64,000 nucleotides of DNA from Escherichia coli (lineage in GTDB: Bacteria; Pseudomonadota; Gammaproteobacteria; Enterobacterales; Enterobacteriaceae), in the NCBI RefSeq assembly GCF_003334385.1, contig NZ_QOWN01000002.1. One strand, written 5' to 3'. A program made the position numbers and the translations under genes. The notes under the pieces are model-generated. The model was not told where the DNA came from and did not search any database. It worked only from the letters and a program-made list of their open reading frames with translations. This document shows positions 13,487-32,008 of this stretch, one piece after another (the first letter of the stretch is position 1; every line of letters starts with the position of its first letter).

Positions 13487-13819
13487 CTAATAGCAAAATA
13501 TAAACCGTCCCCAAAAAAGCCACCAACCACAAACCAGACAAATACCGAGCGAGAATACATATACCCAAAACTCGAACATTTCCCGCATAAAGAGTTTTCT
13601 TAAGATAAGAATAATAAGTGGCGTAAGAAGAAAAAATGCTGCAATCATTGCTTGCAATATACGATCTTCGCCTGAAACGGAAGGTATACTGCAAATATTT
13701 CCTCCCGACTCAAGCATCCAGTCATACTTATTGAAAGCAAAAAAAGAATCTATTAACCAATAAGTAAGCATTATATATAGCAATGCTTCAAATATTGTTT
13801 TAATTTTCTGCTTTAACAT
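13487..13819 (-). CDS. ygiZ: Inner membrane protein (110 aa, 3-4 TM helices)
   Basis: ORF track; hydrophobic; AT-rich codon usage. Confidence 0.8.
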   Translation of the reverse strand: MLKQKIKTIFEALLYIMLTYWLIDSFFAFNKYDWMLESGGNICSIPSVSGEDRILQAMIAAFFLLTPLIILILRKLFMREMFEFWVYVFSLGICLVCGWWLFWGRFIFCY

Positions 13820-19722: not shown

Positions 19723-21204
19723 ATGAAGAAATTGCTCCCCATTCTTATCGGCCTGAGCCTTTCTGGGTTCAGTTCGTTGAGCCAGGCCGAGAACCTGATG
19801 CAAGTTTATCAGCAAGCACGCCTTAGTAACCCGGAATTGCGTAAGTCTGCCGCCGATCGTGATGCTGCCTTTGAAAAAATTAATGAAGCGCGCAGTCCAT
19901 TACTGCCACAGCTAGGTTTAGGTGCAGATTACACCTATAGCAACGGCTACCGCGACGCGAACGGCATCAACTCTAACGCGACCAGTGCGTCCTTGCAGTT
20001 AACTCAATCCATTTTTGATATGTCGAAATGGCGTGCGTTAACGCTGCAGGAAAAAGCAGCAGGGATTCAGGACGTCACGTATCAGACCGATCAGCAAACC
20101 TTGATCCTCAACACCGCGACCGCTTATTTCAACGTGTTGAATGCTATTGACGTTCTTTCCTATACACAGGCACAAAAAGAAGCGATCTACCGTCAATTAG
20201 ATCAAACCACCCAACGTTTTAACGTGGGCCTGGTAGCGATCACCGACGTGCAGAACGCCCGCGCACAGTACGATACCGTGCTGGCGAACGAAGTGACCGC
20301 ACGTAATAACCTTGATAACGCGGTAGAGCAGCTGCGCCAGATCACCGGTAACTACTATCCGGAACTGGCTGCGCTGAATGTCGAAAACTTTAAAACCGAC
20401 AAACCACAGCCGGTTAACGCGCTGCTGAAAGAAGCCGAAAAACGCAACCTGTCGCTGTTACAGGCACGCTTGAGCCAGGACCTGGCGCGCGAGCAAATTC
20501 GCCAGGCGCAGGATGGTCACTTACCGACTCTGGATTTAACGGCTTCTACCGGGATTTCTGACACCTCTTATAGCGGTTCGAAAACCCGTGGTGCCGCTGG
20601 TACCCAGTATGACGATAGCAATATGGGCCAGAACAAAGTTGGCCTGAGCTTCTCGCTGCCGATTTATCAGGGCGGAATGGTTAACTCGCAGGTGAAACAG
20701 GCACAGTACAACTTTGTCGGTGCCAGCGAGCAACTGGAAAGTGCCCATCGTAGCGTCGTGCAGACCGTGCGTTCCTCCTTCAACAACATTAATGCATCTA
20801 TCAGTAGCATTAACGCCTACAAACAAGCCGTAGTTTCCGCTCAAAGCTCATTAGACGCGATGGAAGCGGGCTACTCGGTCGGTACGCGTACCATTGTTGA
20901 TGTGTTGGATGCGACCACCACGTTGTACAACGCCAAGCAAGAGCTGGCGAATGCGCGTTATAACTACCTGATTAATCAGCTGAATATTAAGTCAGCTCTG
21001 GGTACGTTGAACGAGCAGGATCTGCTGGCACTGAACAATGCGCTGAGCAAACCGGTTTCCACTAATCCGGAAAACGTTGCACCGCAAACGCCGGAACAGA
21101 ATGCTATTGCTGATGGTTATGCGCCTGATAGCCCGGCACCAGTCGTTCAGCAAACATCCGCACGCACTACCACCAGTAACGGTCATAACCCTTTCCGTAA
21201 CTGA
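19723..21204 (+). CDS. tolC: Outer membrane efflux channel TolC; start trimmed to MKKLLPILIG
   Basis: ORF track frame; signal peptide; 493 aa. Confidence 0.97.
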   Translation: MKKLLPILIGLSLSGFSSLSQAENLMQVYQQARLSNPELRKSAADRDAAFEKINEARSPLLPQLGLGADYTYSNGYRDANGINSNATSASLQLTQSIFDMSKWRALTLQEKAAGIQDVTYQTDQQTLILNTATAYFNVLNAIDVLSYTQAQKEAIYRQLDQTTQRFNVGLVAITDVQNARAQYDTVLANEVTARNNLDNAVEQLRQITGNYYPELAALNVENFKTDKPQPVNALLKEAEKRNLSLLQARLSQDLAREQIRQAQDGHLPTLDLTASTGISDTSYSGSKTRGAAGTQYDDSNMGQNKVGLSFSLPIYQGGMVNSQVKQAQYNFVGASEQLESAHRSVVQTVRSSFNNINASISSINAYKQAVVSAQSSLDAMEAGYSVGTRTIVDVLDATTTLYNAKQELANARYNYLINQLNIKSALGTLNEQDLLALNNALSKPVSTNPENVAPQTPEQNAIADGYAPDSPAPVVQQTSARTTTSNGHNPFRN

Positions 21205-24988: not shown

Positions 24989-25159
24989 TTATTCTACCTT
25001 TTCGGCTGTCTCTTCTCTCGTACTGTTTAAGTATTTGTTCCGCGCTTCAAGCAGTGCGTCTCTGTCCTGGCGAAACGCCCGACAATAACGTTTCAAATGC
25101 AGGAAATAACCCACCACAACCAGAGCAATCAATACAATCCAGTACCAGGCGATAAACAT
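24989..25159 (-). CDS. Small single-pass membrane protein, 56 aa (MFIAWYWIVLIALVVVGYFLHLKRY...)
   Basis: ATG at 25157-25159 preceded by AAGGG Shine-Dalgarno; N-terminal TM helix followed by basic residues; own terminator hairpin; not part of any listed longer gene. Confidence 0.55.
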   Translation of the reverse strand: MFIAWYWIVLIALVVVGYFLHLKRYCRAFRQDRDALLEARNKYLNSTREETAEKVE

Positions 25160-25357
25160 CCTTTTACCCTTAATATTTAACAATACTAAACATTTAGCGT
25201 ATAAATTTCACATATCCTTTTTCGGATATATTCATATGGTCGCATAATAACGGAACAATTATATGATTTTGATCATAATGAAAAAGAATGCCTGATATTA
25301 ATGAAATTTTCTCATAGAAAGAGAAGCGGAATTAACATCTTGCATAGCAGGGAAAAA

Positions 25358-25390
25358 TAAAAACCGAAGCCTGCTACAACTTCGGTTTCT
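25358..25390 (-). terminator. Rho-independent terminator downstream of ribB
   Basis: Hairpin AAACCGAAG...CTTCGGTTT with U-run in minus transcript. Confidence 0.55.
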
Positions 25391-25420
25391 TGATTAAGGC
25401 AGTAAATTAAGCAGCGGTTT

Positions 25421-26074
25421 TCAGCTGGCTTTACGCTCATGTGCCTGACGGTATGCCACCAGGTCTTCAATAGTCACGAGCGCCATATTGTGTTTATTGG
25501 CAAACTCAATACACTCTGGTGCACGCGCCATCGTGCCATCGTCATTAGTCAGCTCACACAGTACACCAGCCGGTTTAAAGCCTGCCAGCGTCATCAGATC
25601 AATAGTTGCTTCAGTATGACCGCCACGCGTCAGTACACCACCTGCCTGAGCGCGAAGTGGGAAAACGTGGCCAGGACGATTCAGATCTGACGGTTTTGCG
25701 CCATCGGCAATCGCTGCGCGAACGGTCGTAATACGGTCAGCGGCAGAAACACCGGTAGTCACACCTTCAGCTGCTTCAATGGTCACGGTAAAACCGGTGC
25801 CATAGGCGCTGGTGTTATTTTCTACCATCATTGGCAGATCGAGTTGTTTACGGCGATCTTCAGTAATGCACAGGCAAACAATACCGCTACCGTGGCGAAT
25901 GGTCAGCGCCATCTGCTCAACAGTCATGGTTTCTGCCGGGAAGATCATATCACCTTCGTTTTCACGGTCTTCATCATCAAGCACCATTACACCGCGTCCT
26001 TCACGCAGCGCAGCCAGTGCATTTTCAACACGTTCGAAAGGCGTACCAAAAGAGGAAAGTAGCGTCTGATTCAT
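25421..26074 (-). CDS. ribB: 3,4-dihydroxy-2-butanone 4-phosphate synthase
   Basis: ORF track; 217 aa. Confidence 0.96.
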
Positions 26075-26159: not shown

Positions 26160-26325
26160 GTCCATGCCCGACAGAATCGTTACTCTCTCCCATCCGGACT
26201 CTAACCGTCGGCCCCGGAATTACACCGGATCTGCTGTCCTTTGAGTTCGCACCCAAAGCGCTCGCGGGCTTTCAACTGAGTTGATTTACCGCCGGTGGGG
26301 AATTTCGCCCCGCCCTGAGAATAAG
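26160..26325 (-). promoter_or_regulatory. sroG: FMN riboswitch (RFN element) in ribB 5' leader
   Basis: Minus-strand sequence contains conserved RFN motifs (…GGGGCGAAATTCCCCACCGGCGGTAAA…GGATGGGAGAGAGTAACG…) in the ~250 nt leader upstream of ribB. Confidence 0.8.
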
Positions 26326-26447
26326 CGGATTCACTATAACGCTAATGATTAGCGGCAGCAACGCATAGCTTCACATAATTCTGGTTTATGACTTACCCTT
26401 ATCGCACTACAATGGCACTCAACACCTATCAGTACAGGGAAACTACA

Positions 26448-26738
26448 ATGATTGACCCGAAAAAAATTGAGCAAATCGCTCGCCAGGTTCACGAATCAAT
26501 GCCTAAAGGAATCAGGGAGTTCGGGGAAGATGTGGAGAAAAAAATCCGCCAAACCCTACAAGCGCAGCTGACGCGCCTCGACCTTGTAAGCCGTGAAGAG
26601 TTCGACGTCCAAACGCAAGTCCTGTTACGGACTCGTGAAAAACTGGCGCTGCTTGAACAAAGAATCAGCGAACTGGAAAATCGCAGTACTGAGATCAAAA
26701 AGCAGCCAGATCCAGAGACTCTCCCCCCAACGCTGTAA
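26448..26738 (+). CDS. ubiK: Ubiquinone biosynthesis accessory factor UbiK (YqiC); start trimmed to [11 protein letters not shown]
   Basis: ORF track frame; ATG at 26448; 96 aa coiled-coil protein. Confidence 0.88.
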
Positions 26739-27021
26739 ACATTCGTCTTTAATGCACTGTAAATTATGAATTAATCCTCTAATTTATAGTGCTTTCTATT
26801 ACCTTATCGCGTAATCCCATTCAGAAAACCATCACAAAAATGAATGAGTACAATTGAAAGTATAATTGCAATGTATTTTTTAAGTTTTACTTAATCGATA
26901 TTTAGATAAACTAATTTTATAAAAAACACAAAATAAAATATCATATTTCAATGATTAGTAGTCCTTAAATAACAGTTACTAATCATTCTCTTTTCTACTT
27001 ATCTTTATATAAAGGAATATT

Positions 27022-27573
27022 ATGTCCGCTTTTAAAAAGTCACTTCTTGTTGCTGGCGTAGCAATGATTCTTTCCAATAACGTGTTTGCTGATGAAGGTC
27101 ACGGTATTGTTAAATTTAAAGGTGAAGTTATCTCTGCTCCATGTTCTATTAAACCAGGTGACGAAGATTTAACTGTAAATCTGGGTGAAGTAGCAGATAC
27201 CGTACTGAAAAGCGATCAGAAATCTTTGGCTGAACCTTTCACTATTCACCTGCAGGATTGCATGCTGAGTCAGGGTGGAACTACTTATTCAAAAGCGAAG
27301 GTTACTTTCACTACAGCAAATACCATGACGGGTCAGTCTGATCTTCTGAAAAATACCAAAGAAACTGAAATCGGCGGCGCCACTGGCGTTGGCGTACGTA
27401 TTATGGACAGCCAGAGCGGCGAAGTAACTTTAGGTACTCCGGTAGTAATTACGTTCAACAATACCAACAGCTATCAGGAACTGAATTTCAAAGCTCGTAT
27501 GGAATCCCCAAGCAAAGATGCCACCCCGGGCAACGTTTACGCTCAGGCTGACTACAAGATTGCTTACGAGTAA
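27022..27573 (+). CDS. ygiL: Fimbrial major subunit (chaperone-usher pilin)
   Basis: ORF track; signal peptide; 183 aa; C-terminal beta-strand pilin motif. Confidence 0.85.
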   Translation: MSAFKKSLLVAGVAMILSNNVFADEGHGIVKFKGEVISAPCSIKPGDEDLTVNLGEVADTVLKSDQKSLAEPFTIHLQDCMLSQGGTTYSKAKVTFTTANTMTGQSDLLKNTKETEIGGATGVGVRIMDSQSGEVTLGTPVVITFNNTNSYQELNFKARMESPSKDATPGNVYAQADYKIAYE

Positions 27574-27623
27574 TCGCATTTGGCCGGGTTCGCCCGGCCA
27601 CATCATTAACGGATTAATGATAA

Positions 27624-30137
27624 GTGGATCAGATGTATAAAAAATTAAAATTAACCACAATAAGCGAATTGATTAAAAATATTTATTGTTCATTATCCGT
27701 TATCATCATTGGTTGTGCGTCAGCTTATGCCGTTGAATTCAACAAAGATTTAATCGAAGCCGAAGATCGTGAAAACGTTAACCTTTCCCAATTTGAAACT
27801 GATGGCCAATTACCCGTCGGCAAATATTCACTAAGCACTCTGATTAATAATAAGAGGACGCCAATCCACCTTGACCTCCAATGGGTATTAATTGATAACC
27901 AAACTGCAGTTTGCGTGACACCAGAGCAATTAACATTATTAGGATTTACTGATGAATTTATTGAAAAAACTCAGCAAAACCTGATCGATGGTTGTTACCC
28001 TATCGAAAAAGAAAAACAAATTACAACTTATCTCGATAAAGGGAAAATGCAATTATCCATATCTGCACCTCAGGCATGGTTAAAATACAAAGATGCAAAC
28101 TGGACGCCTCCTGAACTTTGGAATCATGGTATTGCTGGGGCATTTCTTGACTACAATTTATATGCCTCTCATTATGCACCACATCAGGGCGATAATTCGC
28201 AAAATATAAGTTCCTATGGGCAGGCTGGGGTTAATCTTGGGGCCTGGCGCCTGCGTACTGATTACCAGTACGATCAGTCATTTAACAATGGCAAAAGCCA
28301 GGCGACCAACCTGGATTTTCCGCGTATTTATTTGTTTCGCCCAATCCCAGCAATGAATGCAAAACTAACTATAGGTCAATACGATACTGAATCCTCTATT
28401 TTCGACTCTTTCCATTTTTCTGGCATTTCGTTGAAAAGCGATGAGAATATGTTACCGCCAGACCTACGTGGTTACGCACCGCAAATCACGGGTGTCGCAC
28501 AAACGAATGCAAAGGTCACTGTCTCACAGAACAACCGTATTATTTATCAAGAAAATGTTCCTCCAGGCCCATTTGCTATTACCAATTTATTCAATACATT
28601 ACAGGGGCAACTTGACGTCAAGGTTGAAGAAGAGGACGGACGCGTTACGCAATGGCAAGTTGCATCTAATAGTATTCCTTATCTGACGCGTAAAGGGCAG
28701 ATTCGCTACACCACTGCTATGGGTAAACCGACCAGCGTTGGTGGTGATTCCTTACAACAACCCTTCTTCTGGACTGGTGAATTCTCATGGGGTTGGCTGA
28801 ACAATGTATCCCTGTATGGTGGTTCAGTTTTAACAAACCGTGATTATCAATCTCTGGCTGCCGGCGTTGGTTTTAACCTTAACTCATTAGGTTCATTATC
28901 TTTTGATGTCACACGATCTGATGCTCAGTTGCATAATCAGGATAAAGAAACGGGTTATAGCTACCGCGCTAACTATTCAAAACGTTTTGAATCTACCGGT
29001 AGCCAACTCACTTTCGCTGGTTACCGTTTCTCTGATAAAAACTTTGTGACAATGAATGAATATATCAATGACACTAACCATTACACGAATTATCAGAATG
29101 AAAAAGAGAGTTATATTGTCACGTTTAACCAGTATCTTGAATCATTAAGGTTAAATACATACGTAAGTTTGGCTCGTAATACTTACTGGGACGCCAGCAG
29201 TAATGTGAATTATTCATTATCACTTAGCCGCGATTTTGATATCGGGCCATTAAAAAACGTCTCCACTTCTCTAACATTTAGCCGAATAAACTGGGAAGAA
29301 GACAACCAGGATCAACTGTACCTAAATATTTCGATTCCCTGGGGAACTAGTAGAACATTGAGCTATGGTATGCAACGAAATCAGGATAATGAGATTTCGC
29401 ATACTGCTTCGTGGTATGACTCTTCCGATCGAAATAATTCCTGGAGCGTTTCTGCTTCAGGCGACAATGATGAATTCAAAGATATGAAAGCGTCACTACG
29501 CGCCAGTTATCAGCATAATACCGAGAACGGTCGACTCTACCTCTCCGGTACATCACAGCGAGACAGTTATTATTCTCTGAATGCCAGTTGGAATGGTTCA
29601 TTCACTGCGACTCGCCACGGTGCCGCTTTCCACGACTATAGCGGTAGTGCTGACTCGCGTTTTATGATCGACGCAGACGGCACTGAAGATATTCCGTTGA
29701 ACAATAAACGCGCGGTAACTAATCGGTATGGCATCGGAGTTATTCCATCAGTCAGCAGTTACATAACAACATCATTAAGTGTTGATACCCGAAATCTGCC
29801 AGAAAATGTGGATATCGAAAACTCGGTTATCACCACCACCTTAACCGAGGGTGCTATTGGCTACGCCAAACTTGATACCCGCAAGGGCTACCAAATCATA
29901 GGGGTTATTCGCCTGGCAGATGGTAGTCATCCACCACTGGGGATTAGCGTAAAAGATGAAACCAGCCACAAAGAATTAGGACTGGTTGCTGATGGCGGCT
30001 TTGTATACCTCAACGGCATTCAGGATGATAACAAACTTGCTTTACGCTGGGGTGACAAATCTTGTTTTATTCAACCACCCAATAGCAGCAACTTAACCAC
30101 CGGAACGGCTATTTTACCGTGTATTAGCCAAAATTAA
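27624..30137 (+). CDS. yqiG: Fimbrial outer membrane usher, apparently intact (837 aa)
   Basis: ORF track; single uninterrupted ORF of usher size; no insertion sequence between ygiL and yqiG. Confidence 0.85.
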   Translation: MDQMYKKLKLTTISELIKNIYCSLSVIIIGCASAYAVEFNKDLIEAEDRENVNLSQFETDGQLPVGKYSLSTLINNKRTPIHLDLQWVLIDNQTAVCVTPEQLTLLGFTDEFIEKTQQNLIDGCYPIEKEKQITTYLDKGKMQLSISAPQAWLKYKDANWTPPELWNHGIAGAFLDYNLYASHYAPHQGDNSQNISSYGQAGVNLGAWRLRTDYQYDQSFNNGKSQATNLDFPRIYLFRPIPAMNAKLTIGQYDTESSIFDSFHFSGISLKSDENMLPPDLRGYAPQITGVAQTNAKVTVSQNNRIIYQENVPPGPFAITNLFNTLQGQLDVKVEEEDGRVTQWQVASNSIPYLTRKGQIRYTTAMGKPTSVGGDSLQQPFFWTGEFSWGWLNNVSLYGGSVLTNRDYQSLAAGVGFNLNSLGSLSFDVTRSDAQLHNQDKETGYSYRANYSKRFESTGSQLTFAGYRFSDKNFVTMNEYINDTNHYTNYQNEKESYIVTFNQYLESLRLNTYVSLARNTYWDASSNVNYSLSLSRDFDIGPLKNVSTSLTFSRINWEEDNQDQLYLNISIPWGTSRTLSYGMQRNQDNEISHTASWYDSSDRNNSWSVSASGDNDEFKDMKASLRASYQHNTENGRLYLSGTSQRDSYYSLNASWNGSFTATRHGAAFHDYSGSADSRFMIDADGTEDIPLNNKRAVTNRYGIGVIPSVSSYITTSLSVDTRNLPENVDIENSVITTTLTEGAIGYAKLDTRKGYQIIGVIRLADGSHPPLGISVKDETSHKELGLVADGGFVYLNGIQDDNKLALRWGDKSCFIQPPNSSNLTTGTAILPCISQN

Positions 30138-30152
30138 TTCAGGATGAAACTA

Positions 30153-30902
30153 ATGCGCTACTTAAATACAAAGAATATCATTGCAGCAGGAGTATTACTC
30201 TCCTGTATGAGCAGCATTGCCTGGGGTGCCATCATCCCGGATCGTACCCGTATCATAATGAATGAGTCAGATAAAGGCGAAGCATTAAAACTTACTAATC
30301 AAAGTAAAAACCTGCCCTATCTGGCCCAAACATGGATAGAAGATACGAAAGGCAATAAATCGCGTGACTTTATTGTCACTGTTCCTCCAATGGTGCGTTT
30401 AAATCCCAGTGAGCAAATTCAAATAAGAATGATAACTCAGGAAAAAATTGCTCAACTTCCTAAAGACAGAGAAACGCTCTTCTATTTTAACGTGCGAGAA
30501 ATACCGCCCAAAACAGATAAAAAAAATGTGATGCAAGTCACTATGCAGCACGCATTGAAACTATTCTGGCGGCCAAAAGCCATTGAATTAGAAGACGATG
30601 GGGTAATGACTTACGAAAAAGTTGAAATCATTCGTAGAAATGACGGTTCGATCCGCTTTAACAATAAGATGCCTTATCACGTTACGCTGGGTTATATCGG
30701 AACAAATGGGGTAACGATGTTACCACAAACGCAAAGCTTAATGGTAACCCCTTTTAGCTATGCAAATACGCAGTTTAAAAATGTTCCGTCAACTTTTCAG
30801 GTGGGTTATATCAATGACTTTGGTGGATTAAGTTTTTATGAAATAAACTGCCCTGTAGTAAATAACATTTGTAATATTTCTGTAGCCAACCGAGATCAAT
30901 AA
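30153..30902 (+). CDS. yqiH: Periplasmic fimbrial chaperone (PapD-like); start trimmed to MRYLNTK
   Basis: ORF track frame; signal peptide; chaperone size (~249 aa). Confidence 0.85.
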   Translation: MRYLNTKNIIAAGVLLSCMSSIAWGAIIPDRTRIIMNESDKGEALKLTNQSKNLPYLAQTWIEDTKGNKSRDFIVTVPPMVRLNPSEQIQIRMITQEKIAQLPKDRETLFYFNVREIPPKTDKKNVMQVTMQHALKLFWRPKAIELEDDGVMTYEKVEIIRRNDGSIRFNNKMPYHVTLGYIGTNGVTMLPQTQSLMVTPFSYANTQFKNVPSTFQVGYINDFGGLSFYEINCPVVNNICNISVANRDQ

Positions 30903-30903
30903 T

Positions 30904-31968
30904 ATGCGCTACTTGTTAATTGTTATTACTTTTTTTATGGGTTTTAGTTCATTACCTGCATGGGCAATGGACTGCTATGCTGAACATGAAGGTGGAAATA
31001 CCGTTGTCATTGGTTACGTACCAAGAATCTCTATCCCCAGCGATGGTAAAAAAGGTGATAAAATCTGGCAAAGCAGTGAATATTTTATGAATGTTTTCTG
31101 TAATAATGCACTACCAGGCCCATCTCCAGGAGAAGAATACCCATCTGCATGGGCAAATATAATGATGTTGTTAGCATCAGGTCAAGACTTTTATAATCAA
31201 AACTCTTATACTTTCGGTGTAACTTATAATGGGGTTGATTATGATTCTACATCTCCACTACCTATTGCAGCACCTGTATGTATTGATATAAAAGGAGCCG
31301 GAACCTTCGGGAATGGCTACAAAAAGCCCGCAGTCTGTAGTGGCGGTCCTGAACCGCAATTATCAGTAACTTTTCCAGTACGAGTGCAGCTATATATTAA
31401 GCTAGCTAAAAATGCCAATAAAGTAAATAAAAAACTTGTATTACCTGACGAATATATAGCACTTGAATTTAAAGGTATGAGCGGAGCAGGTGCTATAGAA
31501 GTAGATAAAAATCTGACCTTCAGGATTCGCGGATTAAATAACATTCATGTCCTTGACTGCTTTGTTAATGTTGATCTGGAACCAGCTGATGGCGTTGTCG
31601 ACTTTGGTAAAATAAATTCCCGAACAATTAAAAATACCAGCGTGAGTGAGACGTTTAGCGTAGTCATGACCAAAGATCCGGGTGCGGCCTGTACTGAGCA
31701 GTTTAATATTTTAGGGAGTTTTTTCACTACGGATATTTTGAGTGATTATAGCCATCTGGATATAGGTAATGGTCTGCTATTGAAGATATTTCATAACGAT
31801 GGAACAGCAACGGAATTTAACCGCTTCTCACAATTTGCTTCTTTTTCATCGTCTAGTGCGCCTTCGGTCACCGCACCATTCAGGGCAGAACTGAGTGCGA
31901 ACCCGGCAGAAACGGTTGTTGAGGGACCGTTTAGTAAAGACGTAATCCTGAAAATCACCTATAACTAG
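30904..31968 (+). CDS. yqiI: Fimbrial tip adhesin-like protein
   Basis: ORF track; 354 aa; signal peptide; last gene of operon. Confidence 0.8.
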   Translation: MRYLLIVITFFMGFSSLPAWAMDCYAEHEGGNTVVIGYVPRISIPSDGKKGDKIWQSSEYFMNVFCNNALPGPSPGEEYPSAWANIMMLLASGQDFYNQNSYTFGVTYNGVDYDSTSPLPIAAPVCIDIKGAGTFGNGYKKPAVCSGGPEPQLSVTFPVRVQLYIKLAKNANKVNKKLVLPDEYIALEFKGMSGAGAIEVDKNLTFRIRGLNNIHVLDCFVNVDLEPADGVVDFGKINSRTIKNTSVSETFSVVMTKDPGAACTEQFNILGSFFTTDILSDYSHLDIGNGLLLKIFHNDGTATEFNRFSQFASFSSSSAPSVTAPFRAELSANPAETVVEGPFSKDVILKITYN

Positions 31969-31985
31969 TATCTAATACAAACACT

Positions 31986-32008
31986 AAAACGGGCCATCAG
32001 GCCCGTTA
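31986..32008 (-). terminator. Hairpin AACGGGCC-atca-GGCCCGTT between convergent yqiI and glgS
   Basis: 8-bp inverted repeat with 4-nt loop immediately 3' of glgS stop. Confidence 0.45.

Follow-up and report, generated by a model that had tools for sequence, protein, structure and literature searches.

The ygiL-yqiGHI operon of Escherichia coli K-12 (b3043 and b3046–b3048) represents a fimbrial type termed Yqi-like (Wurpel 2013). The operon has been assigned to the pi clade of chaperone-usher systems (PMC3032704, Table 5), and the same E. coli W genome paper records it as present in W, B, and Crooks and as IS2::yqiG in K-12, where it is disrupted by an insertion sequence (IS). Yqi-like fimbriae are found in phylogroups A, B1, D, and E. 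A second type, Yqi, is found in phylogroup B2 and is also known as extraintestinal pathogenic E. coli (ExPEC) adhesin I (EA/I), or as “Ygi” in strain CFT073. The two types are closely related, mutually exclusive, and located at different loci (Wurpel 2013, PMC3559732). The type, clade, distribution, and K-12 disruption of ygiL-yqiGHI are all known already. Here we describe the copy of this operon in a 64,000-nucleotide stretch of E. coli contig NZ_QOWN01000002.1 (assembly GCF_003334385.1), referred to as the window. The region is very probably a chromosomal Yqi-like operon of the K-12 type and the pi clade, carried in its common intact form by a wild, non-K-12 E. coli.

The operon and its uninterrupted usher gene

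The operon consists of four intact open reading frames (ORFs), all on the + strand between positions 27022 and 31968 and arranged in the order pilin, usher, chaperone, and adhesin. The first gene, ygiL (27022..27573), encodes the major fimbrial subunit of 183 residues. It is followed by yqiG (27633..30137) for an outer-membrane usher of 834 residues, yqiH (30153..30902) for a periplasmic PapD-like chaperone of 249 residues, and yqiI (30904..31968) for a predicted two-domain tip adhesin of 354 residues. With the RefSeq starts, the intergenic gaps are 59, 15, and 1 nt. A first-pass annotation of the window had reported four contiguous fimbrial genes; the ORFs are indeed in place and all the expected domains are found. 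The DNA is 99.9% identical to that of MG1655 and BL21 and is flanked by ubiK and glgS as in both strains, which assigns the operon to the Yqi-like type.

The longest usher ORF is a single open frame of 837 codons that begins with a GTG codon and spans 27624–30137. The first-pass annotation took this frame as an uninterrupted usher of 837 residues. The frame is open throughout, but the protein is likely to be 834 residues long and to start at ATG 27633. Similarly, the longest chaperone ORF spans 30144–30902 and has 252 codons. ATG 27633 and ATG 30153 are the usher and chaperone starts in the RefSeq annotation of identical DNA from other strains, and reading of the sequence reveals better Shine-Dalgarno spacing at both. 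The coordinates of the reference strain VG48B2 are valid for about positions 20000–57700 of the window; beyond this range, indels make gene coordinates approximate. The chance of 837 stop-free codons in DNA of 40% GC (guanine plus cytosine) is about 1e-24, as estimated from base composition. Thus, yqiG is not a chance ORF.

In MG1655, the locus contains an IS2 of 1,331 bp that is oriented like the operon and has the ends TAGACTGG...CAAATCCA. The 5-bp target GTTAT, read from the MG1655 junctions, is duplicated in K-12. In the window, the target is empty: comparison with MG1655 reveals one copy of GTTAT (27699..27703) and no IS at the locus. The IS2 of MG1655 is located 130 bp past the ygiL stop codon and 71 nt into yqiG, within the signal-peptide codons (codon 24 of 834). 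It disconnects yqiG, yqiH, and yqiI from the ygiL promoter as well as from the native start and signal peptide of the usher. The first 22 residues of the usher, MYKKLKLTTISELIKNIYCSLS, are swapped for nine residues from the IS2 end, and in RefSeq, ygiL is followed by an IS2 transposase of the IS3 family and then by an usher ORF shortened to 821 residues. In sequence, IS2 replaces the start and N terminus of the MG1655 usher, not a large part of the protein. In BL21, the usher is uninterrupted and has 834 residues.

The first-pass annotation had placed IS2 between ygiL and yqiG in MG1655, had described the usher as truncated by it, and had claimed that the window lacks it. An alignment bears out the last claim, as MG1655 is interrupted and the window has a single GTTAT. 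The other two hold in part. IS2 is present in MG1655, but inside the 5′ end of yqiG. The usher loses its start and 22 residues, but no large part is lost and an ORF of 821 codons remains.

Two features of the MG1655 chimera can be added. The 821-residue ORF starts in the right end of IS2 (positions 3809–3840 of the MG1655 locus), and the chimeric N terminus, MSGNIGANP-VIIIGCASAYA, has no basic residue before the hydrophobic core.

The operon was counted across 5,426 complete genomes of E. coli, 3,247 of which cover 80% or more of the 5.4-kb locus. A 201-bp probe over the IS2 site matches 3,277 genomes and is contiguous in 2,907, and a probe for the left IS2 junction of MG1655 is matched in full by 363. 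The counts of 2,907 and 363 add up to nearly 3,277, so an uninterrupted site is the usual state and the IS2 allele belongs to the K-12 lineage. ER1709 and other laboratory derivatives of K-12 are among the genomes with the junction, and BW25113 is one example of a split site. The novelty that the first-pass annotation implied for an intact operon was over-rated, because the site is intact in the great majority of genomes that have it and the intact form is already in PMC3032704.

Pilin, usher, chaperone, and adhesin

The products comprise the elements of a classical chaperone-usher system, namely a three-domain usher, a two-domain PapD-like chaperone, a pilin, and a two-domain adhesin. YgiL scores 383.6 bits with the NCBIfam equivalog PRK09733, whose cut-off is 189, and matches the Pfam Fimbrial domain with E = 1.7e-21. 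A signal peptide can be read from its translation, as can an N-terminal donor strand like that of FimA, GIVKFKGEVISAPC, and a C terminus, ...YKIAYE, with a penultimate tyrosine. YgiL differs by one amino acid from its K-12 and BL21 counterparts. YqiG, encoded by one ORF of 834 codons, is composed of PapC_N (E = 1.6e-30), Usher (residues 195–747, E = 1.8e-190), and PapC_C (E = 1.1e-10) domains. YqiH is composed of PapD_N (E = 1.8e-35) and PapD_C (E = 3.2e-7) domains. The best NCBIfam profiles of the usher are StdB, the StfC-type PRK15284, and PRK15273, and the nearest ones of the chaperone are StdC, SteC, and StfD. The usher profiles, together with the position of the usher gene before the chaperone gene, agree with the published pi-clade assignment (PMC3032704).

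YqiI is sequentially composed of a signal peptide, a receptor-binding domain (residues ~22–218), and a pilin domain (residues ~220–354). Residues 22–218 match the Protein Data Bank (PDB) entry 9rwe, a 197-residue chain named “Fimbrial protein”, with E = 3.6e-122, and three related chains match as well. The 9rwe construct is what an isolated receptor-binding domain would be expected to look like. No description of this structure was found in the literature searched. Residues 228–354 give a weak match to the Pfam Fimbrial domain, and no NCBIfam family is matched by YqiI.

An AlphaFold2 model of YqiI was built from an alignment of 11 sequences. Its mean predicted local distance difference test (pLDDT) score is 74, and the C-terminal domain reaches about 90. 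The top full-length matches of the model in a Foldseek search of the PDB are LpfD, FimH, PapG, and CupB6 (E ≤ 1e-7), and the C-terminal domain resembles the pilins FimA, PapA, and FimG. Foldseek did not return 9rwe, either because its coordinates are absent from that copy of the PDB or because the model is not precise enough in its N-terminal domain. The first-pass annotation had called yqiI adhesin-like. Support for this comes from the sequence match in the PDB, from the fold search, and from homology to EA/I, which together suggest that YqiI is a two-domain tip adhesin.

By analogy with the family, the fimbria may be assembled as follows. YgiL, forming the rod, and YqiI, forming the tip, would be exported via Sec. 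YqiH would capture both in the periplasm by donor-strand complementation. The usher YqiG would then polymerize the subunits by donor-strand exchange and secrete the fiber with YqiI at its tip.

Several observations weigh against the assignment of the region to a working fimbrial operon of this type. The usher and the chaperone score below the curated cut-off of every NCBIfam equivalog (695 against 1289 for StdB). As these scores are far below the cut-offs, the two proteins are relatives, not orthologues, of StdB and StdC. The N-terminal domain of the YqiI model is of moderate confidence only and contains several disordered loops with pLDDT below 50. No published fiber assembly by a K-12-type operon was found in the literature searched, and the data on adhesion, chicken-lung colonization, and glycan binding concern EA/I only (PMC2771359, PMC8545135). 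In addition, the ORF list and the annotation of the neighborhood reveal no dedicated regulator gene within the operon.

The operon segment, its origin, and its regulation

The operon lies on a segment of 5,301 bp (26679..31979) that was delimited by blastn of empty-site loci against the window. In O157:H7 and the uropathogenic E. coli (UPEC) strain 26-1, the segment is replaced by about 72 bp and ubiK abuts glgS. The window is matched up to position 26678, and the match resumes at 31980 in O157:H7 or at 31982 in UPEC 26-1. The segment has a GC content of 0.401, compared with 0.520 in the rest of the window, and every other 5.3-kb window is at 0.477 or higher. The GC content at third codon positions of the four genes is 0.31–0.39. 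The segment is a true presence/absence polymorphism of atypical composition. No flanking direct repeats, tRNA, or integrase were found at the segment, and a classical mobile island was rejected on this ground.

The left boundary of the segment falls inside ubiK (26448–26738), whose 3′ end occupies 26679–26738. UbiK has 96 residues in the presence of the operon and 99 residues in its absence, in O157:H7 and UPEC 26-1; the O157:H7 copy ends with ...SSELEARNNSVADLQSPPAIPPIDKAE. The last ~20 codons of the gene in the empty-site strains are a divergent alternative, not a truncation.

The first-pass annotation had described the locus as AT-rich and horizontally acquired. The AT-richness of the operon and its upstream region is borne out by the composition of the segment and by a GC content of 0.233 in the ubiK-ygiL spacer. 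Acquisition fares less clearly: the presence/absence pattern with clean empty sites and the atypical GC content speak for it, but mobility genes are missing, so that either gain or loss could account for the pattern. Alternatively, the segment could be ancestral and have been lost by deletion from lineages such as O157:H7 and B2. The lack of an integrase, tRNA, IS, or flanking repeat at the segment would fit such an origin, as would the related four-gene operons in the same neighborhood of other genera (between zupT and ribB in Enterobacter mori) and the closely related, mutually exclusive nature of Yqi and Yqi-like (Wurpel 2013, PMC3559732). However, the GC content of the segment is 11 points lower than that of its flanks, and the clean empty site with its alternative ubiK tail fits allelic replacement by recombination better. 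Moreover, homologues of YqiI fall from at least 90% identity in Escherichia and Shigella directly to 34–36% in other genera, namely Enterobacter, Trabulsiella, and Salmonella. Deletion of ancestral DNA is thus rather doubtful, though it deserves consideration.

The spacer between ubiK and ygiL (26739..27021, + strand, 283 bp) is presumed to be the regulatory, H-NS-bound region. It is the most AT-rich sequence of its size in the window, as only 2 of 3,186 windows of the same size are that low, its own position included. Next in AT-richness is a patch at 13581–13781 (GC content ~0.28–0.31) that overlaps ygiZ (DUF2645) next to qseBC, where gene coordinates are approximate. In K-12, the yqiC(ubiK)-ygiL spacer was identified as a site of RpoD holoenzyme and an H-NS target (Shimada 2014, PMC3946193). 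The motif reported there, a candidate sigma-70 promoter TCGATA-17-TATAAA, was located at 26895..26923 on the + strand. Transcription would start within this spacer of 23% GC and would normally be silenced by H-NS.

A second K-12 study, on horizontally acquired genes that are silenced by H-NS, took an intragenic promoter of yqiI as an example (Warman 2020, PMC7229825). Its “yqiI 2.2” fragment, which was active in vitro, maps by its primers to 31227 to 31078 on the − strand of the window. The fragment contains the putative antisense promoter TTGACC-18-TATATT (31156..31185, − strand), which scores 10/12 in a consensus scan. The H-NS silencing proposed in the first-pass annotation agrees with these two reports, on the spacer and on yqiI, both of which concern K-12; for the source strain, we infer H-NS control from them.

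A hairpin, GGCCGGG-UUCG-CCCGGCC, is located in the ygiL-yqiG gap just past the ygiL stop codon (27582..27599, + strand). It is built from a 7-bp GC stem and a UUCG tetraloop, and the fold of 27560–27640 has a free energy of −25.1 kcal/mol (z = −2.5). It was not called an intrinsic terminator, since it lacks a T-run. By analogy with other fimbrial operons, the hairpin may act as an mRNA stabilizer or as an attenuator and may bias expression toward the pilin over the usher. Another hairpin (31988..32007, − strand) is located between the convergent yqiI and glgS, 20 nt past the yqiI stop codon. This terminator-like site looks like the glgS terminator and may stop the operon transcript too.

Two known switching mechanisms were considered and rejected. 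The spacer 26739–27021 contains no GATC, and the nearest ones are at 26693 and 26709 in ubiK and at 27214 in ygiL. The absence of a GATC pair from the spacer speaks against Dam-Lrp phase variation of the Pap/Std type. An invertible switch of the fim type is not supported either, given the lack of inverted repeats bracketing the spacer and of a recombinase gene in the neighborhood.

The operon could be a silent relic whose sequence is intact only because inactivating mutations have yet to accumulate. It is targeted by H-NS, very AT-rich, without a linked activator gene, and absent from ~40% of complete genomes. In several further genomes, it has been hit independently by IS903B, ISKpn26, IS1, IS2, or ISEc33, and the elements other than IS2 sit elsewhere in the operon than at the K-12 site. 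These observations are countered by four ORFs that stay open across 4.9 kb of stop-rich, 40%-GC DNA and by a site that is uninterrupted in 2,907 of 3,277 genomes. In addition, the three single-nucleotide polymorphisms (SNPs) in yqiG and yqiI relative to MG1655 are all synonymous, a pattern that fits purifying selection. Expression has also been recorded: transcripts of Yqi-like fimbriae were detected in Shiga toxin-producing E. coli and varied between isolate groups (PMC6033998), and ygiL is upregulated on BolA overproduction (PMC4337573). A silent relic is therefore an unlikely description of the operon.

The source of the window can be judged from the same comparison. Once IS2 is taken out of the MG1655 sequence in silico, six SNPs over 8.4 kb remain between it and the window, two each in ygiL and yqiG, one in yqiI, and one in intergenic DNA. 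The MG1655 proteins match those of the window at 100% identity over YqiG residues 23–834 and throughout YqiH and YqiI. Over the 25 kb round the locus, identity is ~100% to many wild isolates, which came from human, livestock, food, and environmental sources. The first-pass annotation's remark that the source is not MG1655-like at this locus accords with both comparisons. The source is a wild E. coli with a K-12/B-like haplotype at the locus, not K-12. A K-12 derivative with yqiG restored by precise excision of IS2 would account for flanks that are 99.9% identical to MG1655, but it is ruled out, to near certainty, by the six SNPs, which are far above the spread among K-12 derivatives, and by the ~100% matches to wild strains, and the single, scar-free GTTAT also speaks against it.

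Other elements of the window lie outside the segment. Rfam SIB_RNA matches of 148 and 142 bits at 35023–35172 and 35398–35547 on the − strand mark a tandem pair of Sib antitoxin RNAs that face two annotated ORFs for ibs type I toxins; in UPEC 26-1, there is a single copy. An FMN riboswitch, an expected known element, is located upstream of ribB (26178–26326, − strand; Rfam 120.9 bits). A match to Rfam naRNA4 (nucleoid-associated ncRNA 4) with 79 bits is located in the cca-bacA intergenic area (43467–43537, − strand).

Comparison with related fimbrial systems

ExPEC Yqi shares with the window operon the four-gene architecture, the usher lineage, and the chromosomal neighborhood. However, ExPEC Yqi is located between yqiD and ribB, unlike the window operon, which lies between ubiK and glgS. 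The yqiD-ribB site is empty in the window (~25277–25423). Local GC content near this empty site is low, about 0.31 at 25081–25141. In UPEC 26-1, the yqiD-ribB site is occupied by a pilin-usher-chaperone-adhesin operon of ~5.5 kb. This operon is identified as ExPEC Yqi (EA/I) from its B2/UPEC background and from its four-gene architecture, which matches that in PMC2771359. Its products share 59, 55, 51, and 38% identity with YgiL, YqiG, YqiH, and YqiI, respectively. The different site and the identities of 38–59% rule out that the window operon is ExPEC adhesin I. Homologous operons are also present in other genera. The operon of Enterobacter mori, between zupT and ribB, occupies the ExPEC-type site, and the operon on a Salmonella contig adjoins cellulose-synthesis genes.

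We tentatively propose, at somewhat less than even confidence, that the intact K-12-type operon builds a functional fimbria, that the receptor of YqiI differs from that of EA/I, and that carriage of the segment is coupled to the alternative C-terminal tail of UbiK. A different receptor is proposed because the ExPEC Yqi adhesin shares only 38% identity with YqiI, and the coupling is proposed because the left boundary of the segment falls inside ubiK. The source strain keeps a complete Yqi-like operon, which could be expressed for a fimbria that K-12 cannot serve to study. A native intact operon is the right starting material for work on the YqiI receptor, and thousands of sequenced strains are equally suited. 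Beyond bookkeeping, the significance is small: the source is shown to resemble wild-type E. coli, not K-12.

More distant relatives are the Std, Stf, and Ste fimbriae of Salmonella and the P (Pap) pili of E. coli. Compared with Pap and Std, the window operon lacks both adaptor and terminator minor subunits, as well as regulators like PapB/PapI or StdE/StdF, and its promoter region is without the GATC pair for Dam/Lrp phase variation. These systems share with the window operon the placement of the usher gene before the chaperone gene, and two-domain adhesins of the PapG type resemble the YqiI model. The closest described system is ygiL-yqiGHI of K-12, which has the same locus between ubiK and glgS, the same gene order, and 99.9% identical DNA, and differs by the 1,331-bp IS2 and GTTAT duplication in codon 24 of yqiG, both of which are missing from the window. 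BL21/B, W, Crooks, and most wild strains have an intact yqiG like that of the window.

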